11,593 nt of DNA from the UHGV virus genome UHGV-1887975, one strand, 5' to 3'. A program made the translations under genes and the position numbers. Origin of the DNA: a virus. Positions 1 through 11,526 of this stretch are shown here, piece by piece; position 1 is the stretch's first letter, and each line of letters begins with the position of its first letter. The notes below the pieces were generated by a model. It saw only the letters and a list, made by a program, of their open reading frames with translations. It made no database searches and was not told the origin of the DNA.

Positions 1-62
1 CATAAAGTAAGGTCAATTACGCCAAAAATGACATTTTCACTGATCCTGATCGTCTTGCCTTA

Positions 63-92
63 TTGAATATGATTGCTATTTGCATTTAAAAT
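63..92 (+). promoter_or_regulatory. tonB: Host tonB promoter: -35 TTGAAT (63-68), -10 TAAAAT (87-92), overlapping an AT-rich Fur-box-like segment (about 65-83, GAATATGATTGCTATTTGC)
   Basis: The hexamers are read directly, with an 18-nt spacer. I recognise the surrounding sequence as the E. coli tonB upstream region. The left flank joined to the right flank across the 13-bp core restores a contiguous tonB 5' region. Confidence 0.6.
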
Positions 93-128
93 CGAGACCT
101 GGTTTTTCTACTGAAATGATTATGACTT

Positions 129-141
129 CAATGACCCTTGA
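129..141. repeat. attL core, CAATGACCCTTGA
   Basis: It is identical to 11514-11526. It contains the tonB-derived ATG at 131-133, which here opens only a 4-codon mini-ORF (ATG ACC CTT GAA TAA, 131-145). Confidence 0.75.
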
Positions 142-258: not shown

Positions 259-924
259 ATGAGCAACACTACTGATTGGGGAAGCATGATAGCCAACATA
301 GTTATGGCTACTACCGCTGTCTGGGCTGCATTCAAAGCTAATGACTGGTTTAAAACCAAGCGTCTTGAGAGTGCTGAAAACTTCTATAAAGAAGTACACA
401 ATCTCCATAAACGTTACTATTCAGCTATCCAATACGTTGAGGATTCAAGAAGAATATTTGATAGTCAGTATGGGTTGCATTCGCCAATATCTGAACCTAA
501 AGACAAGTCATTGCAATGGGAGGTTAAATCGAACTCTTACAAAATCATCGCTGAACTAGATTATCTGGCATCGTCACTACAAATGATGGATGCAATGGGT
601 AACAAACTTAGCCCTAAATCGGCTTCACTGGTTAGTGATATGATGGAAGCACATGGACGATTCTGTAATGATGTGATGAACTTCAATGACTCAGTTTGGA
701 AGGTTATAAGGGCAGGTATAACTGAAGAGAACATCCCACATACGCGAGGCTATGTGAACGGCGATTACATGGCTATCCTTACCAGTATGGATGAACCTGT
801 AAGAATATCTTTTAAGTTAAAAGAAATCAGTTTTAAAGATTTTTACTTACATGAAACTACTATGCAGTCAGTAATAACGAGGCTGAAATCGCTTATCGCC
901 AGAACAGGTAAAAACAGGACATAA
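259..924 (+). CDS. Hypothetical membrane-anchored protein, 221 aa, with one N-terminal TM helix (about residues 9-25) and a helical soluble domain
   Basis: It is a long ORF and the first gene inside attL, on the same strand as the tonB promoter. The hydrophobic segment is MIANIVMATTAVWAAF. The SD (GAAAGG) abuts the ATG, so the exact start is uncertain. Confidence 0.7.
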   Translation: MSNTTDWGSMIANIVMATTAVWAAFKANDWFKTKRLESAENFYKEVHNLHKRYYSAIQYVEDSRRIFDSQYGLHSPISEPKDKSLQWEVKSNSYKIIAELDYLASSLQMMDAMGNKLSPKSASLVSDMMEAHGRFCNDVMNFNDSVWKVIRAGITEENIPHTRGYVNGDYMAILTSMDEPVRISFKLKEISFKDFYLHETTMQSVITRLKSLIARTGKNRT

Positions 925-1112
925 ACAGGTTAGTACCTATGCAATTTAACGGTATTTTTCCAAGTATCTATGCAATCCTACACAGATTCTATACAGTATC
1001 GACATAGTTTCCTTTTGGTATAACTTATTGAAATATATAAAGAATCTGTGAAGCCCCTTTTCAGGGTAAACTGTATCGTGTTAGTCGTCCCTCTCTCGAC
1101 TCCTAGAAAAGT

Positions 1113-1142
1113 GCTATATACAGGGCTATATAATGCTATATA
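1113..1142. repeat. Three tandem GCTATATA units (1113-1120, 1125-1132, 1135-1142), including a perfect TATAAT at 1129-1134
   Basis: Read directly, with a period of 10-12 bp. This could be a promoter cluster or an easily melted AT-rich element. Confidence 0.5.
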
Positions 1143-2591
1143 GATAGTTGGTCACATGGTGTAACTATCAAACTACTTAACAGTTTCCTACGTGAAAGTT
1201 AGAAAGTGATAGTTATAGTTACCTTGTCAAATCTTCGTAGTCCATTCTTAAAAAATCACTTACAGACACCTTAATATCTATACAGATTTCATGTAGAACA
1301 CGATTAGTGCGTAGAAGAGTCATTATGTTAAAAACGAACTGTATACGTATCAGTACTGATTTATAAGGGTTTTGTGTATTTGAAGATAAGAGGCTATACA
1401 GCACCTTGAGAGCATGTCTTCTAAGTCATTGATACATAAGGTCACAGAAGTTTGTGTCTGTTACAGAGAAAACTGGATAGGACTTCACAGAACTACAAAA
1501 TGTTACAGCTATTGATAGGTGAAATCTTCTTGATAGATGCCTTGAAGTGTGGTGAAGGTTTCTTGAGGTGGAGCTAAACAGATGCTATGAAGAAAGTCAA
1601 TAGTTGGTTATAGATATTTTAACTGCTTTTGCAAAGGGGGTGCTGTATCGTGAATCTGGGGTACTTAACAGCCATCAATCATGAGGTAGATTCTACCGAA
1701 TCAACTGTGTAGATATTTTTTAAGATTATCGGTGAAGGGGGAATGCAGAGGGGGGTACTACGATTTTTATAAAAATTTTCAGAAGCCAAATAACTACTGT
1801 GTATATTTTGCACAATCCTGCCAAACCTCATAGAAAGCTCTGTAGCGAGTTTTAACCCCATTTTTAGGGGTAACCTGTAGGGATGTACCACCCACCTTAA
1901 AATAAAGGGGTAAAATCGCTTAGAATGCGTTACAGAGCGTCTGAGAAGCTATATTCACAGATTTTACTAAAGTCTCAGACTTCTAAGTAGTCTTTTTAAC
2001 GGGAGGGTTCTTTCTCATGTATCACCCTCTCTTCCCGCTAAGTAAGCTACACAGACCTAGAGAACATGCCTTCACAGCATCTATATCAGGTCAGATTTAG
2101 AGGGTTTTGATAGAATTTTCAAAGGTACTTGACAGATAACTATGAAGTTGTTAGGAAGAATTGTTTAACGGGAGGAAAGATACGATATAACCCGAAGGGA
2201 AAGTATCATCTTAACAGTGATTGTAAGAGATACCTGAAAAGCTCCTCTTAACAGAACTACCAAGAAGAGAGGGAACGATAAGACCAGAGGTAGTGACCTG
2301 TTAAATAGTTCGTTTCAAAGCTCTTAAGAGTCTGTTAAGTAAGGGCTATGTGAACAATCTTACCATTTTGTCAATGCTCTTGTCTTTGACCTAAATCAAT
2401 AAAATGTATCGTTTGATATGGTTTTAAGCAAGATGGCTAAAAATCTTTTTAGAGGGGCGCTTCGCTTGTGTCACTATGTTCTTTCTCTCCCTGTCTAAGA
2501 GGGGGGTTACAGAGGTCTTTCAAGTCTCAATAGACAAACCGAGGAACGCAGGAAACCGAGGGAAGAAAAACTATTGTGATTACCCTGAACA

Positions 2592-2625
2592 AGGTCTGTA
2601 AAGGTCGTTTAAGAGGTCGGTTAAG
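2592..2625. repeat. Three tandem iteron-like units: AGGTCTGTAA, AGGTCGTTTAAG, AGGTCGGTTAAG
   Basis: Read directly. The units are contiguous with a period of 10-12 bp. Confidence 0.6.
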
Positions 2626-2749
2626 AAAGGAGCTTCCCTCTCTGGGGTTGTCGCTCTTCTCTCGCTTGGTGGATTGATTAGGGGGTATGTTATACAAGCC
2701 CAACTAAGAAGACCTCTGAAGCTTACCTGTGAAGAAGCTGAACAGCTAT

Positions 2750-2802
2750 TATATTGGGTGATTACAACTCATTGAAAAATAAGCATTTTTAGAAATCACT
2801 GT
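2750..2802. repeat. 53-bp direct repeat, copy 1
   Basis: 49 of 53 positions match 2844-2896, at an offset of 94 bp. Confidence 0.85.
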
Positions 2803-2843
2803 TAAGGTTGCAGAGTTGTCTGTGAGGAGACTTGTCTGCTCTC

Positions 2844-2896
2844 TATATTGGGTGGTTACAACTTATTGAAAAATAAGAACTTTTAGAAATCACTGT
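2844..2896. repeat. 53-bp direct repeat, copy 2
   Basis: 49 of 53 positions match 2750-2802. Confidence 0.85.
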
Positions 2897-2998
2897 CAGA
2901 GAGGTGAATACTTGATAGATACAGCTTTCCGGTTCTGTCAAGTCATTTTTTAATAGATAGCATAAAATGCTAAAGATACCCCTATACCATCACGTACA

Positions 2999-3026
2999 GG
3001 GGGTTTTGAAGGGGGTTTAACGGGGG
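2999..3026 (+). repeat. Three G5 tracts at 11-12-nt spacing: AGGGGGTTTTGA, AGGGGGTTTAAC, GGGGG
   Basis: G5 runs at 2999-3003, 3011-3015 and 3022-3026. The third run overlaps the last codons of the minus-strand small ORF. Confidence 0.6.
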
Positions 3027-3193
3027 TCTGTGTGGTCATTATCCTTAAGGTCAAGCGTCCATGTACGACCGAACAGTTTAAAGACAACAAGCACTCTGAC
3101 GAGGACGTAGCGAAGTAGCAGGCCTGCAATAAGTCCAATACCTCCACCAGCCCATACATCAGGTGACCCCAATTCTGGAGGGAGATTTACCAT
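3017..3193 (-). CDS. Small single-pass membrane protein, 58 aa (MVNLPPELGSPDVWAGGGIGLIAGLLLRYVLVRVLVVFKLFGRTWTLDLKDNDHTDPR)
   Basis: The ATG at 3193 is preceded by AAGGA with a 6-nt spacer on the minus strand. The protein has a clear hydrophobic helix, and the segment is locally GC-richer than its surroundings. The track's longer version (to 3235) begins at a TTG with no SD. Confidence 0.4.
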   Translation of the reverse strand: MVNLPPELGSPDVWAGGGIGLIAGLLLRYVLVRVLVVFKLFGRTWTLDLKDNDHTDPR

Positions 3194-3410
3194 TAAATTT
3201 CCTTGTAAGACGCTCTCAATCGCATTCTGACACAAAAAAGTACCTGACCTTATAGTTGACCTGAAGAGGCCATTTAACTCGTTACAGAGCGATTGAAGAG
3301 GTCTGTGTGCAATGCAATAACCATGTGACCACTCTCATAGCCACGCCTCATATTTTACTCTCCCCATAGAACCATTATACCACAGATGTTAATGAAATGT
3401 TAAAAAGTGC

Positions 3411-3439
3411 TTGACATTAGTCTTTGAAAATGCTAGTAT
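3411..3439 (+). promoter_or_regulatory. Strong sigma70 promoter for the rightward operon: TTGACA (3411-3416), 17-nt spacer, extended -10 TGcTAGTAT (3431-3439)
   Basis: Hexamers and spacing are read directly. It is followed by two TTAACA boxes (3450-3455, 3461-3466) one helical turn apart, in an operator position. Confidence 0.65.
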
Positions 3440-3487
3440 TGTATATAAGTTAACAGAGGATTAACAATTATAAGGACTAGCTTATGA

Positions 3488-4042
3488 ATGAACGACAGAG
3501 AATTTAGAGCGATGCTTCAGGCATCAAGAGAACGCAACAAGCACAACTCCTACGCTTACACAAACAACCCCACCAGCTACGAACTACCAGCCTTTTCCAA
3601 ATCCGAACGTAAAAGCATTGAAGCGGTCATTCGTAGCATTACGCCACGAGGCAGATATATGCCAACACGCAAAACAACAAAGAATAACTTAAAAACTTTC
3701 TTGATGAGTTTTGACAGCTACGAACAATTACCGTCACGAATTGAAGATGTAATTATCGGCACTTGTCGCAGCTTTGGAAGGGATAACTATCACCGGAAAG
3801 TTTTCTATTTGCTTCGAAGCCTTGATGAGATTAACTCAAGCACAGTGACGAGCCATCTTCAAAGACAAGCAACCAGACTTAGCCACGAGCTACCATCTGA
3901 TAAGTATTGCGCTAATTTAACCACCATTTGCAATAAAGTTATCGAGACAATCAATCATCATGTTGGGGTTGGTAATATCAGCCTTACGACCAGTGAGCCA
4001 GACTTTGAATTTGACGTATACGCACAAGCAGAGGAATTTTAA
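3488..4042 (+). CDS. Hypothetical protein, 184 aa
   Basis: It is the first ORF downstream of the 3411 promoter. Its stop lies 1 nt before the next start. The SD is weak or distant. Confidence 0.7.
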   Translation: MNDREFRAMLQASRERNKHNSYAYTNNPTSYELPAFSKSERKSIEAVIRSITPRGRYMPTRKTTKNNLKTFLMSFDSYEQLPSRIEDVIIGTCRSFGRDNYHRKVFYLLRSLDEINSSTVTSHLQRQATRLSHELPSDKYCANLTTICNKVIETINHHVGVGNISLTTSEPDFEFDVYAQAEEF

Positions 4043-4043
4043 A

Positions 4044-4325
4044 ATGGGAAATAAACACACACTAACCAGAGTTACAAAGACAGCCTTTGAAGAACTTAAC
4101 CGAATCAAAAACATTACAGGTCTGCCACACTCAGCAGTGATGAAGCTTGCAATTAACCGTGATATTAACGAGCAGGATTTGCTTAATAGTCGTTTAGAGG
4201 CAGCAAGACACCATATCAGGATTAAGCAAGATGACCTTGATAGTCTGAAATCTTTAAATGCTTTTGGACTGGATTTAGCAAGGTTACTAAGTATCAAAAT
4301 TCACAAATTAGCGATGGAGGTTTAA
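4044..4325 (+). CDS. Putative ribbon-helix-helix (CopG/Arc-like) DNA-binding protein, 93 aa
   Basis: The ATG at 4044 is preceded by GAGGA with an 8-nt spacer. The N-terminus HTLTRVTKTAFEELNRIKNITGLPHSAVMKLAINR follows the strand-helix-turn-helix pattern of CopG-type RHH proteins. The track's 3960 start overlaps the upstream gene. Confidence 0.7.
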   Translation: MGNKHTLTRVTKTAFEELNRIKNITGLPHSAVMKLAINRDINEQDLLNSRLEAARHHIRIKQDDLDSLKSLNAFGLDLARLLSIKIHKLAMEV

Positions 4326-4711
4326 TGTATGACTTTTATAAACATCGTGACCATTTGGTAAGATTTGACGGTAAAGTCTGGAAAGACGTAACACAAACCA
4401 ATAAGCCCAAGTTTACCCACCAGCAATTAGCCTCAAGATTTGATATCTGGGCTGAAGCACAAAAAGATAATGGTGATTTCGAGTTTATCAGAGGTTTTGA
4501 TTATGCTTACGAAAGCGACCTTAAAGACGCCATTGAATTAATGGAGAACTTCAACTCTATTAAAAATAGTGACAAGCACAAAGCCAACGGTAACAGATAC
4601 GATAAAGATTTAATCATTGATGCAATCACCAAAGGACAATCACAAAGTTATATTTCTGAGAAATACGGCTTATCACGTAGTCAATACTACAAGATTAAAG
4701 CGTCTGTGTAA
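4325..4711 (+). CDS. Hypothetical protein with a C-terminal helix-turn-helix, 128 aa
   Basis: TAATG overlap with the upstream gene and a GGAGG SD. The C-terminus ITKGQSQSYISEKYGLSRSQYYKIK resembles resolvase/terminase-small-type HTH motifs. Confidence 0.75.
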   Translation: MYDFYKHRDHLVRFDGKVWKDVTQTNKPKFTHQQLASRFDIWAEAQKDNGDFEFIRGFDYAYESDLKDAIELMENFNSIKNSDKHKANGNRYDKDLIIDAITKGQSQSYISEKYGLSRSQYYKIKASV

Positions 4712-4849
4712 GTCTGTGAGAATGAGTGAGACTCAAAGATGAGCTACCCTATTACTAAGGTGTCTCACTCCCTCTGTAACCCGCATGGTTACTGGCCTCA
4801 GAATGGCTATTTTGGCAGATTTAAGATGTGTTTTTATAGGATTTTAAAA

Positions 4850-5173
4850 ATGAATAATTTCCCACTACAGATTTTTATTGATACCGACACCGCCATGATG
4901 ATTCAGGCTTTCACTGATGTAGGTGTTAGCATTGACTTTGATAAGTTGTTAGAGTTAATGGCTGATNATNCNGANANCATCTNTGACTTTATTCACTCGG
5001 TGGAGTTTAACGAGCCTCGAATGATGTTACCAATTACAGACAGTAATATGAAAAGATTGGTTATTGAGCAAACGAACAAATACAGTATTTCCCCAGAGCA
5101 ATTTTTGAAAGGTGCTGTGACAATCCTGTACAGCGATAATATTTTGGTTACGGATTCCGTGAGGGTTCACTAA
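4850..5173 (+). CDS. Hypothetical protein, 107 aa, containing 6 ambiguous bases
   Basis: The ORF is in the frame of the track's 4739..5173 entry. The ATG at 4850 (MNNFPLQ...) is preferred because 4739-4849 holds two hairpins and encodes an atypical Cys/Trp/His-rich peptide. The start remains uncertain. Confidence 0.6.
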   Translation: MNNFPLQIFIDTDTAMMIQAFTDVGVSIDFDKLLELMADXXXXIXDFIHSVEFNEPRMMLPITDSNMKRLVIEQTNKYSISPEQFLKGAVTILYSDNILVTDSVRVH

Positions 5174-5250
5174 TGGGCTTAATAATTGCTTGGACGTTGC
5201 TTGGCTTATTTGTTGGTTGCTGGGTGGGTAACACAGTAAATAAGAATTGA
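5173..5250 (+). CDS. Tiny hydrophobic peptide, 25 aa (MGLIIAWTLLGLFVGCWVGNTVNKN)
   Basis: TAATG start/stop overlap with the upstream gene. GAGGG SD at 5161-5165 with a 7-nt spacer. The sequence is TM-like. It falls below the ORF-track length cut-off. Confidence 0.45.
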   Translation: MGLIIAWTLLGLFVGCWVGNTVNKN

Positions 5251-5273
5251 TGTTATCAATCTGTTAAAAGCTG

Positions 5274-5302
5274 TTGACAAATAACCTTAAGCATGAGATG
5301 AT
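5274..5302 (+). promoter_or_regulatory. Candidate sigma70 promoter: TTGACA (5274-5279), 17-nt spacer, GATGAT (5297-5302)
   Basis: The -35 is perfect but the -10 is mediocre. It lies in a 495-nt intergenic gap. Confidence 0.3.
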
Positions 5303-5308
5303 GGTAAT

Positions 5309-5496
5309 AGGGGGCAACTCTTCCTGAATTAAACTATTAATCATTCTACATCAATGATAGTTATTCTGAGTTGGAAAGGTGCAATGCTTTTCGTCATGGC
5401 CTATTTAGCCCACACTAGATAGGCTATCTCAAAAAGTCTTTGTTTATTCATTGAATCCTTTACAGATTGCCCTAATCATGAGTTAGGGCGTTTTTT
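5309..5496 (+). ncRNA. Candidate sRNA of about 190 nt, between the 5274 promoter and the 5469-5496 terminator
   Basis: This rests only on the promoter-terminator pairing in an intergenic region. It contains an internal stem GCCTAT/ATAGGC and a 22-aa hydrophobic mini-ORF (5354-5422) that has no SD. Confidence 0.25.
5469..5496 (+). terminator. Rho-independent terminator: GCCCTAA / TTAGGGC stem, 7-nt loop, then GTTTTTT
   Basis: The 7-bp perfect stem (5469-5475 / 5483-5489) and the T-run (5491-5496) are read directly. Confidence 0.65.
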
Positions 5497-5667
5497 AAGA
5501 GTTTTTAAAGAAATTTCTTCACCAGCCCTTTATAGCGTTTTAGTTATCTAGGGCTTTTTCAGCTTTTAAAAAGCATACTTGGCAAACGCTTTTAAGTCTC
5601 TTCTAAGTTCGTAGGCTGTCAGGTGTGCTTTTTAAAAACTGAATATTACTTAGAAGAGGAAAAAACA

Positions 5668-6378
5668 ATGACAAACGATTTATATATTAACGGCAGAAAG
5701 ATTGATAGCTTCGGGGACTGGTCACCACAGGGTGAACATCCGCTACATACTATTCAGCGTAAAGAACACGATGAAAGAATTAAGCTTGAGCAAGAGTTAA
5801 AGATGTCACCAAAGGTAATTTCCTTTGTGTCTCCTGAGCCTCAAGAAATGCCTGATGTATGCAAAACTGAAGCACTATTTAATCTTGAGCGTGAATATTA
5901 CCCACTGCTAAAAGCACAGCGTATTAAACTAGATGACGCTTACAGCAAAGTTACCCTGATGCAATCAGCTATTGAGCCATCAGAATTTGAGATTCAGGAT
6001 GAATTGTCACAGAAACCATTTGTCTATTACAAATATGAAGACAATGATGGTTTTGGTACTTTTCCTGAGAATATCCCAGACGTGATTAATAATCTTCCTG
6101 ATGGATATCGAATTGTGAAGATGGTTAAAGCTTCAAGAGGTGCTGGTCAGTTTATTTTCATGACCGATAGGAGCGATGAAGAACTCTGTGAAATTGCTAA
6201 ACAGAACATCTTAGCATCACGTAACAAGCAACTTGAAAATGTTAAGTTGTATCTCTCAAGAGAGCTTCAGGCTATGAAAGAGCTTGTTAGTGAATATGAA
6301 TCACAGAAGAAGATTGCTATGCAGGCTGATATTGAGCAGTTAGTGAAGATTTCTCAGAAATATGCAAAGGCACTTTAA
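5668..6378 (+). CDS. Hypothetical protein, 236 aa, with a coiled-coil-like C-terminus
   Basis: The ATG at 5668 is preceded by AGAGGA with a 7-nt spacer. The track's 5623 start is a GTG inside the GTGTGCT motif. Confidence 0.75.
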   Translation: MTNDLYINGRKIDSFGDWSPQGEHPLHTIQRKEHDERIKLEQELKMSPKVISFVSPEPQEMPDVCKTEALFNLEREYYPLLKAQRIKLDDAYSKVTLMQSAIEPSEFEIQDELSQKPFVYYKYEDNDGFGTFPENIPDVINNLPDGYRIVKMVKASRGAGQFIFMTDRSDEELCEIAKQNILASRNKQLENVKLYLSRELQAMKELVSEYESQKKIAMQADIEQLVKISQKYAKAL

Positions 6379-6402
6379 CTATGAATTAAAAGGAGGTGGT
6401 GA

Positions 6403-6606
6403 ATGATTGATTTAACAGAACGCTATGAGCTTATTAAAGCAATTAGTGAACGATTGAAAGAACAACCCAACAAACCAAAACGAATCAAATCATCCACCTC
6501 TAAGCAAAAGAATAGAATCAGAAGAATCGCTAAATGGTGTCTTGATAAATTACCAAGTGATTGTCAGATTGTCGGTGAAGATGGTAATTATTATCTGGTT
6601 AGGTAA
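6403..6606 (+). CDS. Small basic hypothetical protein, 67 aa
   Basis: Strong SD (AAAGGAGGTGGTGA then ATG). Lys/Arg-rich centre. Followed by a terminator. Confidence 0.7.
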   Translation: MIDLTERYELIKAISERLKEQPNKPKRIKSSTSKQKNRIRRIAKWCLDKLPSDCQIVGEDGNYYLVR

Positions 6607-6631: not shown

Positions 6632-6672
6632 GGGAGAGATTATCGAGTGACATCGGTAGCTCTCCCTTTTTT
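6632..6672 (+). terminator. Rho-independent terminator: GGGAGAG / CTCTCCC stem followed by TTTTTT
   Basis: Stem arms at 6632-6638 and 6660-6666, and the T-run at 6667-6672, are read directly. Confidence 0.7.
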
Positions 6673-6700
6673 GTATATGAGATAGTCTTCTATCGAATCC

Positions 6701-6802
6701 TGTGTGCTACGTGATGATTCGGATAAGAATTATCCTCATGAAATCTGTAAAACTAATACCCACACTGAAAAATAGAATTTACGTACAACACGCTTAAAGA
6801 GG
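6701..6802 (+). promoter_or_regulatory. Conserved GTGTGCT-box intergenic element, copy A, upstream of the tape-measure gene
   Basis: It shares GTGTGCTACGTGA (6702-6714) and the block TACCCACACTGAAAAATAGAATTTACGTACAACACGCTTAAAGAGG (6757-6802) with copy B. The two ends can pair (6701-6714 with 6779-6792, with 2 internal mismatches). Confidence 0.55.
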
Positions 6803-6812
6803 TGAAACATGA

Positions 6813-8936
6813 ATGAGCAAATTCACAGTTGATAGTTTTATCGTTGAGCTAGGCTTCAATGAAAACGTTATTAAGGGACTGCAAAGAGTTGAAAAGGCAG
6901 CTTTGCAGTCAGCACAAAGAATTGAAAAGAACCTAAATAAAGGTTTCAGGATTAATACAAAGCAGCTTGATAGTAATTTAACGGCTTCTTTAGGGCAGCT
7001 TGAAAGGAAGTTTAATAAGGCCTTTGACAAGATTGAACAGAGAGCAAGAAATACTAAAGCTTTCCAGTTTACCACCAGATTTAATGACACTGTTAATCCT
7101 CCAAAACAACCAAGACAGCCACGAATTAGCGGAAACAGAGCAATCACAGCAGCTTACTCAGCGAATATGAGCAAGCTAAAAGGCCTTAACCCAATTGTCG
7201 AGAAATACATTAAGAGTCAGTTTTACGGGCTATCTGCTAAAGCCGGGTCAATGGATTCTTCAAAATTCAATGAGAAGTTAGCTCAGTTAAACGCTTCAGT
7301 CAGAGAAGCAATTGCTAAAGCCAGAGGTCATACATCCACCAGCATTAATGGTGACAGAGCAGCTAATAGTCTTGATAACCTGTCTTCAGCAGCAGTTAAA
7401 ACAGCAGGTGCATTTATCTCAATGCAGGCTGTATTAGCCAGTTATCAGAAGATTATGGAAATTGGTTTACAGCGTGCAAGTGCTGAACGTTCAATTGATT
7501 TCGTATTTGATAAAGATGCAGGTCAGGTAAAAGAGTTCACAAAGTCATTAGCTCAAACAACGGGTTTAGATATCGCTGAACTGCAATCACAGTTTGCTGG
7601 TTTTGGTGCTTCAGCTAAAGAGTCTATGGGTATTCAAGGTTCTGAAGAACTTTTTAAAAATATGATTGGCTATGCTCGTCTGATGGGGAGAAGTGAAGAA
7701 GAGATTAAGCGAGCACTGACAGCATTATCACAGATGGCTGGTAAGGGTCAGATTATGGCTGAAGAGCTTAAGGGGCAACTGGCTGAAGCTGTTCCTGGTA
7801 TGGTTCAGGTATTCGCTAAAGCAACCGGAAAGACTGAACAGGAATTATTTGATGCCATGAAGAAGGGGGCTTTAAAATCTGCCGATACTCTTCAGAAGGT
7901 CACTCAGGAACTGAATAAACAAATCACCGCTAAAGGTGGCTGGAAAGCCATTTCAGAAAGTACTCAGGCACAACTAGGGAACTTGAAAAACTCTTGGAAT
8001 ACCACGCTTGATAGTATCTTCAGAGGTTCTGAAAATGGTCTGCAAGATTTTACACGAAGCCTAACAACGCTTTTAAACGCTCTTGGTGGAAGTGGTAAAA
8101 GTCTTGGTGAATCTCTTGGTAGTCTCATGACTTCTATGTCACATGGTGTCGATAGTCTGACCGATATTAGTTACAAGGTGCGAGCGTTCTTTGATGAGGT
8201 GACATTAGCTTACCGTTCACTAAATGACACTCAGAGGAAAATTGTTGATGGTTTATCTGATGGGTTAATTGATGGTTTGAAGATGCTTGCTGTGGCTGTT
8301 ACTGCTCAAAAGGCTGCAAATGTAGCTGGAGGCTTGTTAAACCTTGCAAATGCTGTTACTTCATTCGGTGATGCTGTTAATAAAGCTAAAGCTGGCAAGG
8401 CTGGTTCTTCAGGTGGTGCGCTAAGTAAAGTCGGTAGAGTTGTCCTTTATGCTGAGTTGGTAAACTTTGCTCTTGATAATTTAAACCCTGAAGCAGCTAA
8501 GAATCCGAACTTACACCAATCAGGTATTGGTACAGAAACAAACTTCAATCCTGAATACAAAGGCGATTCTAAACCAAACCAAATTAATGAGGGGTGGGCT
8601 AAGATTGGTAGTTCTATCGCTGACTGGTTTAATGGTGCAGCTAATAAAATTGCTAACTTACAAGAACCGATGAATAACTTCGTAAATAACACACAATCAA
8701 CTCCACCAGCTATCGACACGGTGAATATCAATGCTCAATTAGCTATGGCTGTATCAGAGTTAGGAAGAAAGGTTGATGCTTTAACAGTAGAAGCTCGGAA
8801 GCCTTTATCAGTTAATATCAAAGGTGAAGCAATTGTTAGGCCGGATGAGCCATCTTTCTTTAATTTCAATCAATCAGCTAATGACCAGTTCACGCAGGAT
8901 ATGCTCTTAAGTTCAAGCTATCCAGAGGAAGAATGA
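6813..8936 (+). CDS. Tail tape measure-like protein, 707 aa
   Basis: The central segment ALSQMAGKGQIMAEELKGQLAEAVPGMVQVFAKATGKTEQELFDAMKKGALKSAD matches the conserved tape-measure core motif known from lambda H/TP901-type TMPs. The protein is long, helical and Ala/Gly/Ser-rich. GAGGTG SD with an 8-nt spacer. Confidence 0.85.
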   Translation: MSKFTVDSFIVELGFNENVIKGLQRVEKAALQSAQRIEKNLNKGFRINTKQLDSNLTASLGQLERKFNKAFDKIEQRARNTKAFQFTTRFNDTVNPPKQPRQPRISGNRAITAAYSANMSKLKGLNPIVEKYIKSQFYGLSAKAGSMDSSKFNEKLAQLNASVREAIAKARGHTSTSINGDRAANSLDNLSSAAVKTAGAFISMQAVLASYQKIMEIGLQRASAERSIDFVFDKDAGQVKEFTKSLAQTTGLDIAELQSQFAGFGASAKESMGIQGSEELFKNMIGYARLMGRSEEEIKRALTALSQMAGKGQIMAEELKGQLAEAVPGMVQVFAKATGKTEQELFDAMKKGALKSADTLQKVTQELNKQITAKGGWKAISESTQAQLGNLKNSWNTTLDSIFRGSENGLQDFTRSLTTLLNALGGSGKSLGESLGSLMTSMSHGVDSLTDISYKVRAFFDEVTLAYRSLNDTQRKIVDGLSDGLIDGLKMLAVAVTAQKAANVAGGLLNLANAVTSFGDAVNKAKAGKAGSSGGALSKVGRVVLYAELVNFALDNLNPEAAKNPNLHQSGIGTETNFNPEYKGDSKPNQINEGWAKIGSSIADWFNGAANKIANLQEPMNNFVNNTQSTPPAIDTVNINAQLAMAVSELGRKVDALTVEARKPLSVNIKGEAIVRPDEPSFFNFNQSANDQFTQDMLLSSSYPEEE

Positions 8937-8950
8937 TTTCTTATATATAT

Positions 8951-9026
8951 CCGTGTGCTACGTGAAATCTTCTGAACGGATATACCCACTAAAAATTATT
9001 TTTTACGTAGCTCACGCTTAACAGAG
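8951..9026 (+). promoter_or_regulatory. Conserved GTGTGCT-box intergenic element, copy B, upstream of the 9102 gene
   Basis: GTGTGCTACGTGA at 8953-8965 and TACCCACTAAAAATTATTTTTTACGTAGCTCACGCTTAACAGAG at 8983-9026. The ends form a 16-bp stem with one mismatch (8952-8967 with 9001-9016). Confidence 0.55.
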
Positions 9027-9101
9027 AAAATACTTATATATCAAAGGTTTGGTTAAAAATGATTAAAATACACTAAGCCTTTGAAATCAAAGGAGAATTT
9101 A

Positions 9102-9872
9102 ATGATTTACACTAATCAGCTTCGTTACAGTGGCAAAGATGGTGTTTACTTCCATCTACAAGGCCAACCAGATAATTTCTTGTCACTATCAGCAACTGAG
9201 AACATGGAATATGACAGCCCTATGATGGTGACCACTCAAAATATGCAATCAGGGCAGACTGTAACAGATAATGTAATGCGTTCACCAAGAACTATTTCAA
9301 TCAGTGGTGTGGTTGTGGTTGGTGAATCCGGTAGTATCCTTATCTCAAGAGATAATAAGCTGGTGGAAAACTTCATAGACACTCTTGAAAACTGGCGTGA
9401 CCAGAAGCAAATTATCTCAGTTGTCTGTAAAGATGGTATTAAGATTGACGACTCAATTATTACAAGCTTTAAAGCCTCTAAAGATGTTGGTATTTCAAAC
9501 GGCCTAAGAATCCAGCTAACTTTTCAGGAAATCAACTTTAAAGCTATCGTAGGGCAAACTGATATTTCGACTGCTACTGGCAAGACCGCTACCACGAATG
9601 ATGGTGGTGCTACTTCTAAGAAGAATACAGGGAATACTACGACAAGTCTTGGAAGCCCTATGCTGACCTGTAAAGAGCTTTTTAGCTATTCGGCAAGTAA
9701 GTTATCAGATGAAGCGCTAAAAGCCCGTGTAACGTGCTCTAAGAGCGTTAGCGTTAAAAATGGTGAGAGCACCTTCACAGCCTCAGCTAATGAGCAAGCT
9801 TCAAAGGTGCTTAAGTCGGGTAATGCTTTACGGAAGTACTCTGTGAATCCGAATAAGAAGGGCACTTATTGA
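9102..9872 (+). CDS. Hypothetical tail-associated protein, 256 aa, named by position downstream of the TMP; the C-terminal half is Thr/Ser/Gly-rich
   Basis: The ATG at 9102 is preceded by AAGGAG with a 6-nt spacer. The track's 9081 start is a TTG. The function is inferred only from synteny with the TMP. Confidence 0.7.
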
Positions 9873-9881
9873 GACATAAAA

Positions 9882-9899
9882 AGGGGCTTCATAGCCCCT
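9882..9899 (-). terminator. Hairpin AGGGGCT / AGCCCCT between convergent genes, followed by a T-run on the minus strand; terminator for the integrase gene
   Basis: 7-bp perfect stem and 4-nt loop. The minus strand reads AGGGGCTATGAAGCCCCTTTTTAT. Confidence 0.65.
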
Positions 9900-9904
9900 G
9901 AAAA

Positions 9905-11425
9905 TTACAGTTGATAAGCGTCAATATCCAGTAGCTCTTTATCAGCAATTTCAAAGATTGGTGACCCATCATTTAGCGGTAACGGGTTTGTAGGTATGGT
10001 TATTTCAGTGTCGTTCTGTAGCGTTACAGTTACCGAATCCTTACCCAATGTCAGCCCCTTTAGATGCTTGGACAAAATCAACTGACACTCGACACGACCC
10101 GCTTTAGTTGTCAGGTCAATATCTTTAAGCTGGGGTAGTTCCTTATCAGTGAGTGAAGCCTTACGCCTCATGTTATCAATCGTGGTCTGTAGCTCTGTGC
10201 GCTTCTGGTTCAGTTCCTTAAGCTGAATTTTTAGTTCATCAATATCATCCATCTCAAGAAGTAGGGCGGTAGCTTTCTTGATTCTGGTTGTGACAATTTC
10301 AACCTCATGCTGTAGAGATGCAATCTTCCCCTCTGCTTCTCCATCATTCCCCACGTCAATCATCCCCAGAAAATTATCAATCATCCACTTATCAAACGGT
10401 TTACGCTTCAACGGAGGAACATCACAGCGACCATCAAGATGGTTATTGCACCGATAAACGCCCTGATACTTATTCTTAGTCCCTGTAGGGTGAACACTAG
10501 CCCCGCACTGACACCTAAACAGACCTTTGAAGATGTTAATCGTTAATGGATTATCACTTGCAGGTGTACGGCCTATACGGTTCTTACCAAGAATCTCTTG
10601 AGCTTTATTGAACGTTGAAGCATCTATAGCGGCTTCGTAGTAGTTCGGTATAGCGGGGCGGTCATTACGTTGTGATGCTGGTAACGTGCCTATCGTTGTC
10701 TCTGACCTTAAGATGGTGCGTACAGAGTGAACACTAAACCCGTTAGCATCTTTACGGCGACTAAACGACTTTATACCGTTGCTTTGAAGGTGACGGGCGA
10801 TGTTATGCAGACTTTCACCACTTAGCAGCAGCTTGAAAATCAGTCTTACAGTCTCAGCGTGTTCATTGAGTTTAAAAGTATCGGGGTCAATCCATCCGGG
10901 AACCATCTTTGTTAAACGTTGTTCACCAGCAAGGGCAAGTTTTGCACGTTGCTCCCATTTCTGAGAAACACGGAAAGACTTCTGCTTAGATTCCTGATGC
11001 GCTATGTAGGCTTTGACACGCTGGATGATTGAGATTCCTAAATCATCGGCTAAAGCATCCTTTGTGTAGATAAGACCATCTTGTAGCGTGTGAATCTCTA
11101 ACCCGTTGCCTAAGATGCGATTCATCAAGGCTTCTGTTTCAAGGTGTTCTAAGCGGCCTATACGGTCGATACTCTCAACAAGCAAAATCGTACCTTCTGG
11201 AAACTCCCCAGACTCAATACGGGCTAACATGTCACCAAACTGACCAGTAAGATGCTTACCTTTGTAACCGGATAGGCCTTCATCACTGAAAGACGCTACT
11301 ACTTGAGCATCGCTATTCTTCTTCAGCCACTGCTTGAACAGGTCGTTTTGTCGTCTGGTTGAATCTGCACCTTCAGCGCCTTGTATAGCTGAACTGTACC
11401 GAAGGTATGTAATTACGCTCCTCAT
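9905..11425 (-). CDS. Large serine recombinase (integrase), 506 aa
   Basis: N-terminal catalytic motif YLRYSSAIQ with downstream VESIDRIGR. Cys-rich zinc-ribbon segment CQCGASVHPTGTKNKYQGVYRCNNHLDGRC. C-terminal coiled coil. The gene lies adjacent to attR. Confidence 0.9.
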   Translation of the reverse strand: MRSVITYLRYSSAIQGAEGADSTRRQNDLFKQWLKKNSDAQVVASFSDEGLSGYKGKHLTGQFGDMLARIESGEFPEGTILLVESIDRIGRLEHLETEALMNRILGNGLEIHTLQDGLIYTKDALADDLGISIIQRVKAYIAHQESKQKSFRVSQKWEQRAKLALAGEQRLTKMVPGWIDPDTFKLNEHAETVRLIFKLLLSGESLHNIARHLQSNGIKSFSRRKDANGFSVHSVRTILRSETTIGTLPASQRNDRPAIPNYYEAAIDASTFNKAQEILGKNRIGRTPASDNPLTINIFKGLFRCQCGASVHPTGTKNKYQGVYRCNNHLDGRCDVPPLKRKPFDKWMIDNFLGMIDVGNDGEAEGKIASLQHEVEIVTTRIKKATALLLEMDDIDELKIQLKELNQKRTELQTTIDNMRRKASLTDKELPQLKDIDLTTKAGRVECQLILSKHLKGLTLGKDSVTVTLQNDTEITIPTNPLPLNDGSPIFEIADKELLDIDAYQL

Positions 11426-11467: not shown

Positions 11468-11495
11468 CTTATAACCATTATGGCTAATGCTACAA
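11468..11495 (-). promoter_or_regulatory. Candidate integrase promoter on the minus strand: TTGTAG (-35, plus-strand coordinates 11490-11495), 16-nt spacer, TATAAG (-10, 11468-11473)
   Basis: Hexamers read from the reverse complement. It would give a leader of about 36 nt before the int ATG. Confidence 0.35.
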
Positions 11496-11496
11496 T
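11469..11496 (+). promoter_or_regulatory. Candidate island-borne outward promoter facing tonB: TTATAA (11469-11474), 16-nt spacer, extended -10 TGcTACAAT (11488-11496)
   Basis: Read directly. GCTACAAT recurs at 11505-11512. This is the only promoter-like sequence between the integrase gene and the tonB ATG. Confidence 0.35.
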
Positions 11497-11497
11497 G

Positions 11498-11505
11498 CCG
11501 AATAG
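11498..11505. repeat. attP arm inverted repeat CCGAATAG, partner of 149-156
   Basis: It is the perfect reverse complement of 149-156 and lies 8 nt from the core. Confidence 0.65.
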
Positions 11506-11513
11506 CTACAATA

Positions 11514-11526
11514 CAATGACCCTTGA
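11514..11526. repeat. attR core, CAATGACCCTTGA
   Basis: It is identical to 129-141 and contains the functional tonB ATG (11516-11518). Confidence 0.75.

Follow-up and report, generated by a model that had tools for sequence, protein, structure and literature searches.

Phage satellites that carry a tape measure protein (TMP) of their own are already known. The PLEs of Vibrio cholerae encode their own TMP, tail assembly chaperone and baseplate protein and assemble chimeric, shorter tails, in which the PLE proteins replace their counterparts from the phage ICP1 and which are 10 nm shorter than ICP1 tails (PMC12987554). The TMP of PLE11 is 20% identical to that of ICP1, the baseplate protein BhuB is 41% identical to its counterpart and a chaperone is encoded as well; possession of its own tail proteins lets PLE11 block the ICP1 TMP by means of Rta without harming itself (PMC12987554). 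Putative tmp genes also occur in PLE-like elements and cf-PICIs (Extended Data Fig. 10, PMC12987554), and a TMP together with a baseplate component was reported by Barth et al. 2023 for 224 putative satellites of E. coli (PMC10055350). Here we describe an integrative island in the 11,593-nt UHGV virus genome UHGV-1887975 (the window, which denotes this whole stretch of DNA), in which a TMP gene is paired with a gene for a tail tube initiator (TI). An initial annotation, made from the sequence alone, had suggested that none of the described satellite families is defined by a TMP. That no described satellite carries one is not supported, given the PLEs, the cf-PICIs and the elements of Barth et al., and the conceptual novelty of a satellite with its own TMP has been overtaken. 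What is new is a common E. coli family, so far undescribed, that combines a TMP with a TI, encodes a serine recombinase, occupies the tonB start codon and shares homology with the terminal repeat of its candidate helper. It seems somewhat probable to us that these islands are satellites of virulent Felix-O1-like (Ounavirinae) myoviruses and build chimeric tails.

Ten sizeable open reading frames (ORFs) are found in the window. The 707-aa product of the gene at 6813-8936 (plus strand) had been called a TMP, and this identity is upheld by matches to PF20155 TMP_3 (7e-20, 71.9 bits with a cut-off of 41), TIGR02675 (2e-13, 50.5 bits), PHROG 4036 “tail length tape measure protein” (8e-81) and gp017, the TMP in the virion structure of Bas63 (PDB 9ndy_F, 1e-66). 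As also described initially, a single 256-aa gene lies between the TMP gene and the convergent recombinase gene. This gene (9102-9872, plus strand) encodes the TI, a Dit-like homologue of Bas63 gp18 and Felix O1 ORF68 that matches PF21821 Dit_like (1e-19, 71.2 bits with a cut-off of 24.2), PHROG 3721 (6e-126) and the Bas63 tube initiator gp018 (PDB 9ndy_A, 5e-112). The length of 256 aa follows from an ATG with a good ribosome-binding site, whereas the mechanically called ORF begins at a TTG at 9081 and would give 263 aa. The TI protein is approximately 71% identical to its phage counterpart over 259 residues, and the gene is 80-84% identical at the nucleotide level to those of 160+ Felixounavirus genomes.

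The gene order in Felix-O1-like phages is sheath, tube, two chaperones, TMP, TI, spacer, hub and spike, and the island carries exactly the TMP-TI segment with the phage order kept. In the Felixounavirus tail module the two genes have the chaperones on one side and the genes for spacer, hub and spike on the other, whereas they stand alone in the island; the 71% identity of the TI, the conserved TMP termini and the shared order are what the two arrangements have in common. Judged from these comparisons, the two tail genes are homologues of the adjacent Felixounavirus genes Bas63 gp17 and gp18. The search for coliphage TMP homologues that had been proposed as a way to nominate a helper gives a clear answer in the Felix-O1-like phages. 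The TI follows the TMP as in the phage, and approximately 38 nt upstream of the island TMP gene retain homology to the chaperone gene of the phage, at its 3' end; the chaperone gene itself is absent from this position. The earlier statement that neither a tube gene nor a chaperone pair precedes the TMP agrees with searches of Pfam, PHROGs and NCBIfam and with tblastn against Felix O1, and a chaperone was likewise not found by a PDB sequence search. The lack of other virion genes in the island, proposed at the same time, stands for capsid, portal, terminase, fiber and lysis genes, for which there are no matches, and needs a correction for the baseplate. In Bas63 six TI subunits form a ring, threaded by the TMP, that joins the hub with its threefold symmetry to the sixfold tube, and a C-terminal extension of approximately 100 residues runs through the baseplate (PMC12609058). 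The partner gene specifies a baseplate-hub component, and it is not strictly true that the island has no baseplate gene.

The island TMP represents an island-specific lineage related to Ounavirinae gp17. It is only 28-30% identical overall to phage TMPs, with 70% identity over the first 40 alignment columns, 46-62% identity in a central block and a final ten residues, LLSSSYPEEE, that are identical to those of the phage. In the tail of Bas63 the 25 residues at the C-terminus of the TMP touch the hub and the puncture apparatus (cryo-EM, PMC12609058, PDB 9NDY), and this hub-docking C-terminus is retained in the island protein. The alignments thus point to a TMP whose docking ends are retained while its body has diverged. 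Island TMPs are also shorter than those of the phages, at 682-708 aa versus 742-747 aa (35-65 aa less), and fall into two subfamilies that are 43-50% identical to each other and each approximately 30% identical to phage TMPs. No TMP more than 60% identical was present among 50,697 phage records. Matches in IMG/VR are, by their contig names, apparently prophage-style calls in isolate genomes and not virion DNA.

A fast-evolving TMP body in two subfamilies would suit a role in delivery or sensing, in which the private TMP serves as an ejection conduit for the small genome, evades TMP-directed superinfection exclusion or TMP-sensing immunity in recipients, or acts as a decoy for such sensors in the cell that carries the island. 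TMPs are ejected and take part in genome delivery, and HK97-type exclusion targets that step (cited in PMC11364771). PADLOC, however, recognizes no defense-system sensor beside the TMP-TI pair, and the co-inheritance of the TI in every island would be left unexplained. We consider this explanation improbable.

Both tail genes are under purifying selection. Ratios of nonsynonymous to synonymous substitution (dN/dS) among islands are 0.13-0.30 for the TMP and 0.06-0.29 for the TI, and this selection spans island lineages that have diverged to a synonymous distance (dS) above 1. Such constraint across lineages speaks against the notion that the pair is an inert leftover, a piece of a tail module that an integrative element picked up on one occasion and has carried passively since. 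The same can be said of the C-terminal extension of the TI, which is common to all islands, is conserved among them and differs from the phage version, of the dedicated regulatory element upstream of the TI in all variants, and of the TMP, which keeps exactly those termini that contact other tail parts. Passive carriage would nevertheless account for the insertion sequences (IS) that lie within the TMP gene in several lineages, including a large human-associated clone, and for the other island genes having no recognizable function. On this evidence an inert leftover is very improbable.

The boundaries of the island are precise. E. coli UTAK-18 is 99.8% identical to the window and places the segment between yciI and tonB, and comparison with K-12 gives an island length of 11,385 bp. 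A 13-bp att core, CAATGACCCTTGA, is present at both ends in identical copies: attL at 129-141 (plus strand), with the native tonB promoter region to its left and the island to its right, and attR at 11514-11526 (plus strand), which encloses the tonB start codon (ATG, 11516-11518). The uninterrupted attB of E. coli K-12 reads ...gacttcaATGACCCTTGAtttacc. The integrase is a large serine recombinase of 506 aa (9905-11425, minus strand) with PF00239 Resolvase, PF07508 Recombinase and PF13408 Zn_ribbon_recom domains and a match to PHROG 95 (2e-77); its gene is convergent with that of the TI, and a sequence scan places a hairpin terminator between the two (9882-9899). The att arms and integrase are accordingly intact, as the initial annotation had them. 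The island sits exactly on the tonB start codon, where it was integrated through the large serine recombinase. Insertion restores the tonB reading frame and pushes the native tonB promoter (window positions 1-128) 11.4 kb upstream, so that tonB is now necessarily driven by island DNA divergent from the integrase gene. Separation of tonB from its native promoter may alter iron uptake and its regulation, as well as sensitivity to TonB-dependent phages and colicins. Sequences resembling TGCTACAAT occur ahead of tonB at approximately 11489-11512. The G+C content of the island is 39.6%, and that of the E. coli chromosome, approximately 51%, is far above this value. Felix O1, with a G+C content of 39% (PMC3185647), matches the island in this respect.

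The element is a complete integrative island and a member of a widespread mosaic family in E. coli, Shigella and Citrobacter. The TMP-TI pair is matched (blastn) in 503 of 5,426 complete E. coli genomes, always in the chromosome and at 70-100% identity, with at least 80% of the pair covered in 122 of these 503. A scan of one genome per species places the family also in Citrobacter sp., where the island lies at tonB and its TMP is split by an IS, and in E. albertii and S. flexneri. Seven related islands were examined, six from E. coli and one from Citrobacter. All are 11-13 kb in size with one compact architecture and without further virion genes, and two att sites are used in the family, the tonB start or a position inside yecE. 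The right arm is constant, consisting of genes of approximately 105, 235 and 70 aa followed by TMP, TI and integrase. The left arm varies. In variant a it consists of a cargo gene and three small genes together with the 2.5-kb ORF-free region; the alternative arm encodes a small recombinase of the resolvase type, a Dam methylase and an HTH_36 protein. Integrases sort by att site, the tonB and yecE types being 36% identical, and the TMP, 236-aa and 67-aa gene types are, like the integrases, reshuffled between islands. The segment is seen in none of the seven islands, across both att sites, as the end of a full-length prophage. Moreover, Felixounavirus, the source lineage of the tail genes, is strictly virulent, so that there is no full-length prophage of that kind to decay from. 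The initial view that the element is not a decayed prophage is thus well founded, given a compact and conserved family, intact att sites and integrase, and dN/dS well below 1. Full-text literature searches, most of them directed at phage satellites, brought up no description of this Felix-O1-linked family.

The island of O157:H7 Vac_07.1 in yecE (L007) has its TMP split by IS1203. Two HNH genes are present in it, one for an HNH_3-AP2 homing endonuclease (3153-3677, minus strand) with 47% identity to ORF95 of Felix O1 and another, small one at 6199-6486 (plus strand). Identification of this O157:H7 copy with the prophage-like element SpLE2 of strain Sakai was rejected, as yecE is intact in Sakai.

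A second connection to the Ounavirinae lies in non-coding DNA. The ORF-free region of 2.5 kb (925-3487) holds no ORF of at least 75 aa and is a candidate site for replication or packaging signals; no gene is annotated there in the 99.8%-identical genome either, and variant-a islands are 70-88% identical to one another over this region. Two of its blocks have matches in 86 Ounavirinae genomes, in non-coding DNA only (blastn, 2.3 Gb, E down to 1e-11), and the matched phage DNA lies in and across the annotated 570-bp direct terminal repeat (DTR), which in Citrobacter phage HP1 is the repeat_region 1-570 annotated as terminal repeat. An alignment of HP1, ECP2307, JLBYU28 and Felix O1 places the right boundary of the repeat at ...GTTAAGGGCTACC|AAGCAGATATACA. 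The first block (1587-1807, plus strand) is colinear with this boundary, with approximately 67 nt inside the repeat, approximately 150 nt beyond it and the boundary itself near 1660. It includes a 28/28-nt identical stretch common only to a phage subgroup such as JLBYU28, and a 24-nt insert is likewise common to the island and JLBYU28. The sub-block 1708-1809 is the sole piece of the ORF-free region kept in every island variant. The second block (2245-2365, plus strand) is homologous to a stretch inside the terminal repeat that is conserved among the phages (HP1 positions 241-317), and the parts of this phage region that other islands retain overlap with those found here. For the left boundary of the repeat we could find no homologue in the island. 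We infer from these alignments that the DTR-like blocks may have been copied from the helper as a signal for packaging or replication; they could equally well act as early promoters or in regulation.

Further features lie in or near the same non-coding DNA. Two 53-nt direct repeats (2750-2802 and 2844-2896, plus strand), 92% identical and 94 nt apart, are located upstream of the first island operon and are possibly iterons or operators. The segment 1821-1982 recurs in other islands as 120-160 nt that are inverted and relocated between small genes (L004 8928-9013, L005 8973-9091 and L007 6461-6622); some islands with the relocated segment carry a small resolvase/invertase-type recombinase, and the segment could be an invertible or mobile mini-element. 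The Ounavirinae terminal repeat itself (Felix O1 12770-13340; HP1 1-570) contains approximately 19 same-strand copies of TGTTA(A/G), usually as (C/T)TGTTA(A/G), which by sequence looks like an array of protein binding sites. This motif is only mildly enriched in the ORF-free region of the island.

The proposal that the islands are satellites of Felix-O1-like phages draws on the identity of the TI gene, the low G+C content, the DTR-like blocks and the endonuclease that links the O157:H7 copy to Felix O1; of these, homology of non-coding DNA to the phage terminal-repeat region provides independent support. Under this model, infection by a Felix-O1-like phage would induce the island, which would excise via its serine recombinase, with an excision directionality factor possibly supplied by the phage, and would then replicate. 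The island TMP and TI would take the place of helper gp17 and gp18 on a hub and spike made by the helper, and helper chaperone, tube and sheath would finish a chimeric tail. Helper-type tails have 26 discs with a disc rise of 38 Å (PMC12609058). At 1.5 Å per residue, a TMP that is 35-65 residues shorter predicts that the chimeric tail falls short of the helper tail by 5-10 nm, which corresponds to 1-3 discs. Island DNA would be packaged by the helper terminase via the terminal-repeat-like signal. Possession of a private TMP/TI pair may allow the island to block helper tail assembly, or to escape TMP-directed interference, while keeping its own transmission, comparable to PLE11 with Rta.

Several observations weigh against this proposal. 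An exact-pattern scan of IMG/VR and JGI metagenome contigs found no attP junction (…CTACAATACAATGACCCTTGAATAAAGTC…). None of the island genes was recognized as that of a replication initiator, a small terminase, a capsid-size factor or a tail chaperone. The two DTR-like blocks are permuted relative to the phage, the boundary block coming first and the internal block approximately 580 nt later, so that they do not lead to a simple model of packaging and might instead be relics, promoters or sites of regulation. The regulatory motif found upstream of the TMP and TI genes (GTGTGCTACGTGA and related sequences) is absent from the Felix O1 genome and is therefore not an obvious copy of a phage promoter. 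Finally, the IS insertions within the TMP indicate that this gene is dispensable for carriage of the island.

The absence of a circular junction from viromes, together with the lack of packaging or capsid genes in the island, would be expected of a pure defense island, in which TMP and TI act as poison or competitor subunits against Felix-O1-like tail assembly and so protect the bacterial population, while the island is not packaged and spreads otherwise. Interference with tail assembly is established for mobile elements (Tai systems, Rta), and a TMP that keeps its docking termini with a diverged body is as expected of a dominant-negative subunit. Known tail-interference proteins are, however, small inhibitors and not full-length structural homologues, whereas here conservation extends along the entire length of both proteins (dN/dS 0.1-0.3), and TMP length is held at 682-708 aa, which is relevant only if the protein still measures a tail. 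Defense would furthermore leave the terminal-repeat homology and the uniform 11-13 kb size unexplained. We regard a pure defense island as unlikely, though as a more serious contender than a delivery or sensing role.

If the islands are satellites, the PLEs are their closest counterpart in anatomy. Both are chromosomal islands that encode a large serine recombinase and contain a long stretch free of ORFs, and the PLE helper ICP1 is a virulent myovirus, as is the candidate helper of the island. Both combine a strongly diverged TMP with a less diverged Dit-like protein, in both the satellite TMP is shorter than that of the helper, and in both the satellite is approximately 1/7 of the helper genome in size. 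The ICP1 tail module has the same order as that of Felix O1, and gp78, directly after the TMP (L021 5448-6062, minus strand; “endolysin” in RefSeq), is a PF21821 Dit-like protein (1.2e-17) and the counterpart of PLE BhuB. Since gp78 shares both the family and the position of the TI, the island and the PLEs appear to have replaced the same two structural positions. Profile-profile comparison of the TI with gp78 is not significant, and the link rests on the shared Pfam family and gene position, the Dit-like gene being the immediate successor of the TMP gene in this island as in the phages. PHROG 1517 and PHROG 380, two families likewise labeled “endolysin”, also match the island TI, so this label looks like a propagated misannotation.

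The differences from PLEs are equally distinct. Hosts and helper lineages are other ones, PLEs are approximately 18 kb in length versus 11.4 kb for the island, and no chaperone is recognized in the island. Profile searches found RepA_N and HNH/nuclease domains in none of the window ORFs, and domain searches recognized no RepA_N initiator, nuclease, TcaP-like protein or other PLE marker in the island. The expanded PLE-like family is defined by homologues of the nuclease NixI; related islands of the present family do have an HTH_36 protein or small HNH genes. In PLEs, infection by the helper triggers excision, replication and transduction, and the helper is completely restricted; for the island such steps are predicted. 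By this comparison the island is like a PLE in functional anatomy, yet the RepA_N and nuclease features by which membership of the PLE family is recognized were not found in it.

The elements of Barth et al. 2023 are, like the island, E. coli integrative elements with a TMP and a baseplate component that lack most tail genes, and a subset has a serine recombinase. They are a different family. Their gene content includes a major capsid protein, a decoration protein and also a RepA_N initiator, none of which was found in the island, and they mostly use tyrosine integrases beside tRNA genes. They are linked to the phages muut, inny and Mt1B1_P17 (Stephanstirmvirinae; muut is a Justusliebigvirus), whereas the island tail genes are of Ounavirinae type. 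PICIs and cf-PICIs resemble the island in that putative TMP genes have been reported in these satellites; they differ in that searches of Pfam and PHROGs found no alpA, pri-rep, terS, capsid, protease, portal, terminase or head-tail adaptor gene in the island, and the integrase is of the serine and not the tyrosine type. The same searches found no alpha primase-helicase, sid/psu/delta or tyrosine integrase of the kind found in P4-like satellites; a cos site was not searched for.

We tentatively put forward, as a possibility just short of an even chance, that the family is the first PLE-like system outside vibrios, an independently evolved and very common group of satellites that parasitizes Felix-O1-like phages, builds chimeric tails with a private TMP and TI, and uses a copied terminal-repeat boundary for packaging. 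If so, tail piracy would be a recurrent satellite strategy, with a second independent example after PLE, and would become accessible in a tractable model host with a helper for which an atomic virion model exists (Bas63), where selective TMP incorporation and joint TMP/TI replacement would be directly testable. As satellites, these islands would mean that Felix-O1-like phages face a specific parasite, which probably also restricts them, in approximately 9% of the complete genomes of E. coli. Because such phages serve in typing, biocontrol and therapy, the islands could then explain strain-specific failures.

The remaining genes of the island are less informative. At the left end, a variable cargo ORF of 221 aa (259-924, plus strand) has no match in Pfam, PHROGs, NCBIfam or PADLOC, and its position is filled by different genes in related islands. 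Six co-oriented small genes (3488-6606, plus strand) encode proteins of 184, 104, 128, 107, 236 and 67 aa. The first three lie at 3488-4042 (184 aa), 4011-4325 (104 aa) and 4325-4711 (128 aa, with a weak helix-turn-helix); the other three, at 4850-5173 (107 aa), 5668-6378 (236 aa, with a coiled coil) and 6403-6606 (67 aa), are present in every island variant. Six isolated N at 4967-4983, inside the 107-aa gene, are a blemish of sequence quality and not biology, as are differences of 1-2 nt in length between the window and the 99.8%-identical complete genome. An AlphaFold2 model of the 236-aa protein (pLDDT 73) shows a long coiled coil and a small alpha/beta domain and has no match at E <= 0.001 in Foldseek searches of BFVD and PDB. 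The NCBI annotation of this protein as a “transposase” is unsupported, there being neither a transposase domain nor a fold match. Its family has 3,121 homologues, which among the 120 listed come from Escherichia and Shigella, with one labeled Salmonella Typhi. None of the other island ORFs matches a capsid, portal, terminase, tube, sheath, chaperone, fiber or lysis function in Pfam, PHROGs, NCBIfam or PADLOC, nor any part of the whole Felix O1 genome by tblastn, and the whole window is without a match in Rfam. Neither these searches nor a PDB sequence search revealed a function in chaperoning, terminase activity, capsid formation or replication for the small genes.

The tail genes are flanked by conserved non-coding elements. 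A terminator-like hairpin, GGGAGAG...CTCTCCC followed by T6 (6632-6672, plus strand), separates the 67-aa gene from the TMP gene and is conserved in this position, close ahead of the TMP, throughout the islands. In a simple scan, neither the region upstream of the TMP nor that upstream of the TI showed a sigma-70-like promoter. Ahead of the TI, in all island variants, is a conserved element approximately 75 nt long with an inverted repeat, GCTACGTGA-N~45-T(T/C)ACGTAGC (TCACGTAGC), at 8951-9027 (plus strand). A copy of this element upstream of the TMP (6700-6795, plus strand), GTGTGCTACGTGA ... TTACGTAC...ACGCTTAA, is particular to this island, and the exact 13-mer GTGTGCTACGTGA is common to this copy and position 8953. 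With up to two mismatches allowed, the 13-mer has 5 matches versus 0.14 expected. A degenerate third copy of the element lies at 1183-1301, and across copies the half-sites GCTACGTGA and TCACGTAGC are approximately 45-95 nt apart.

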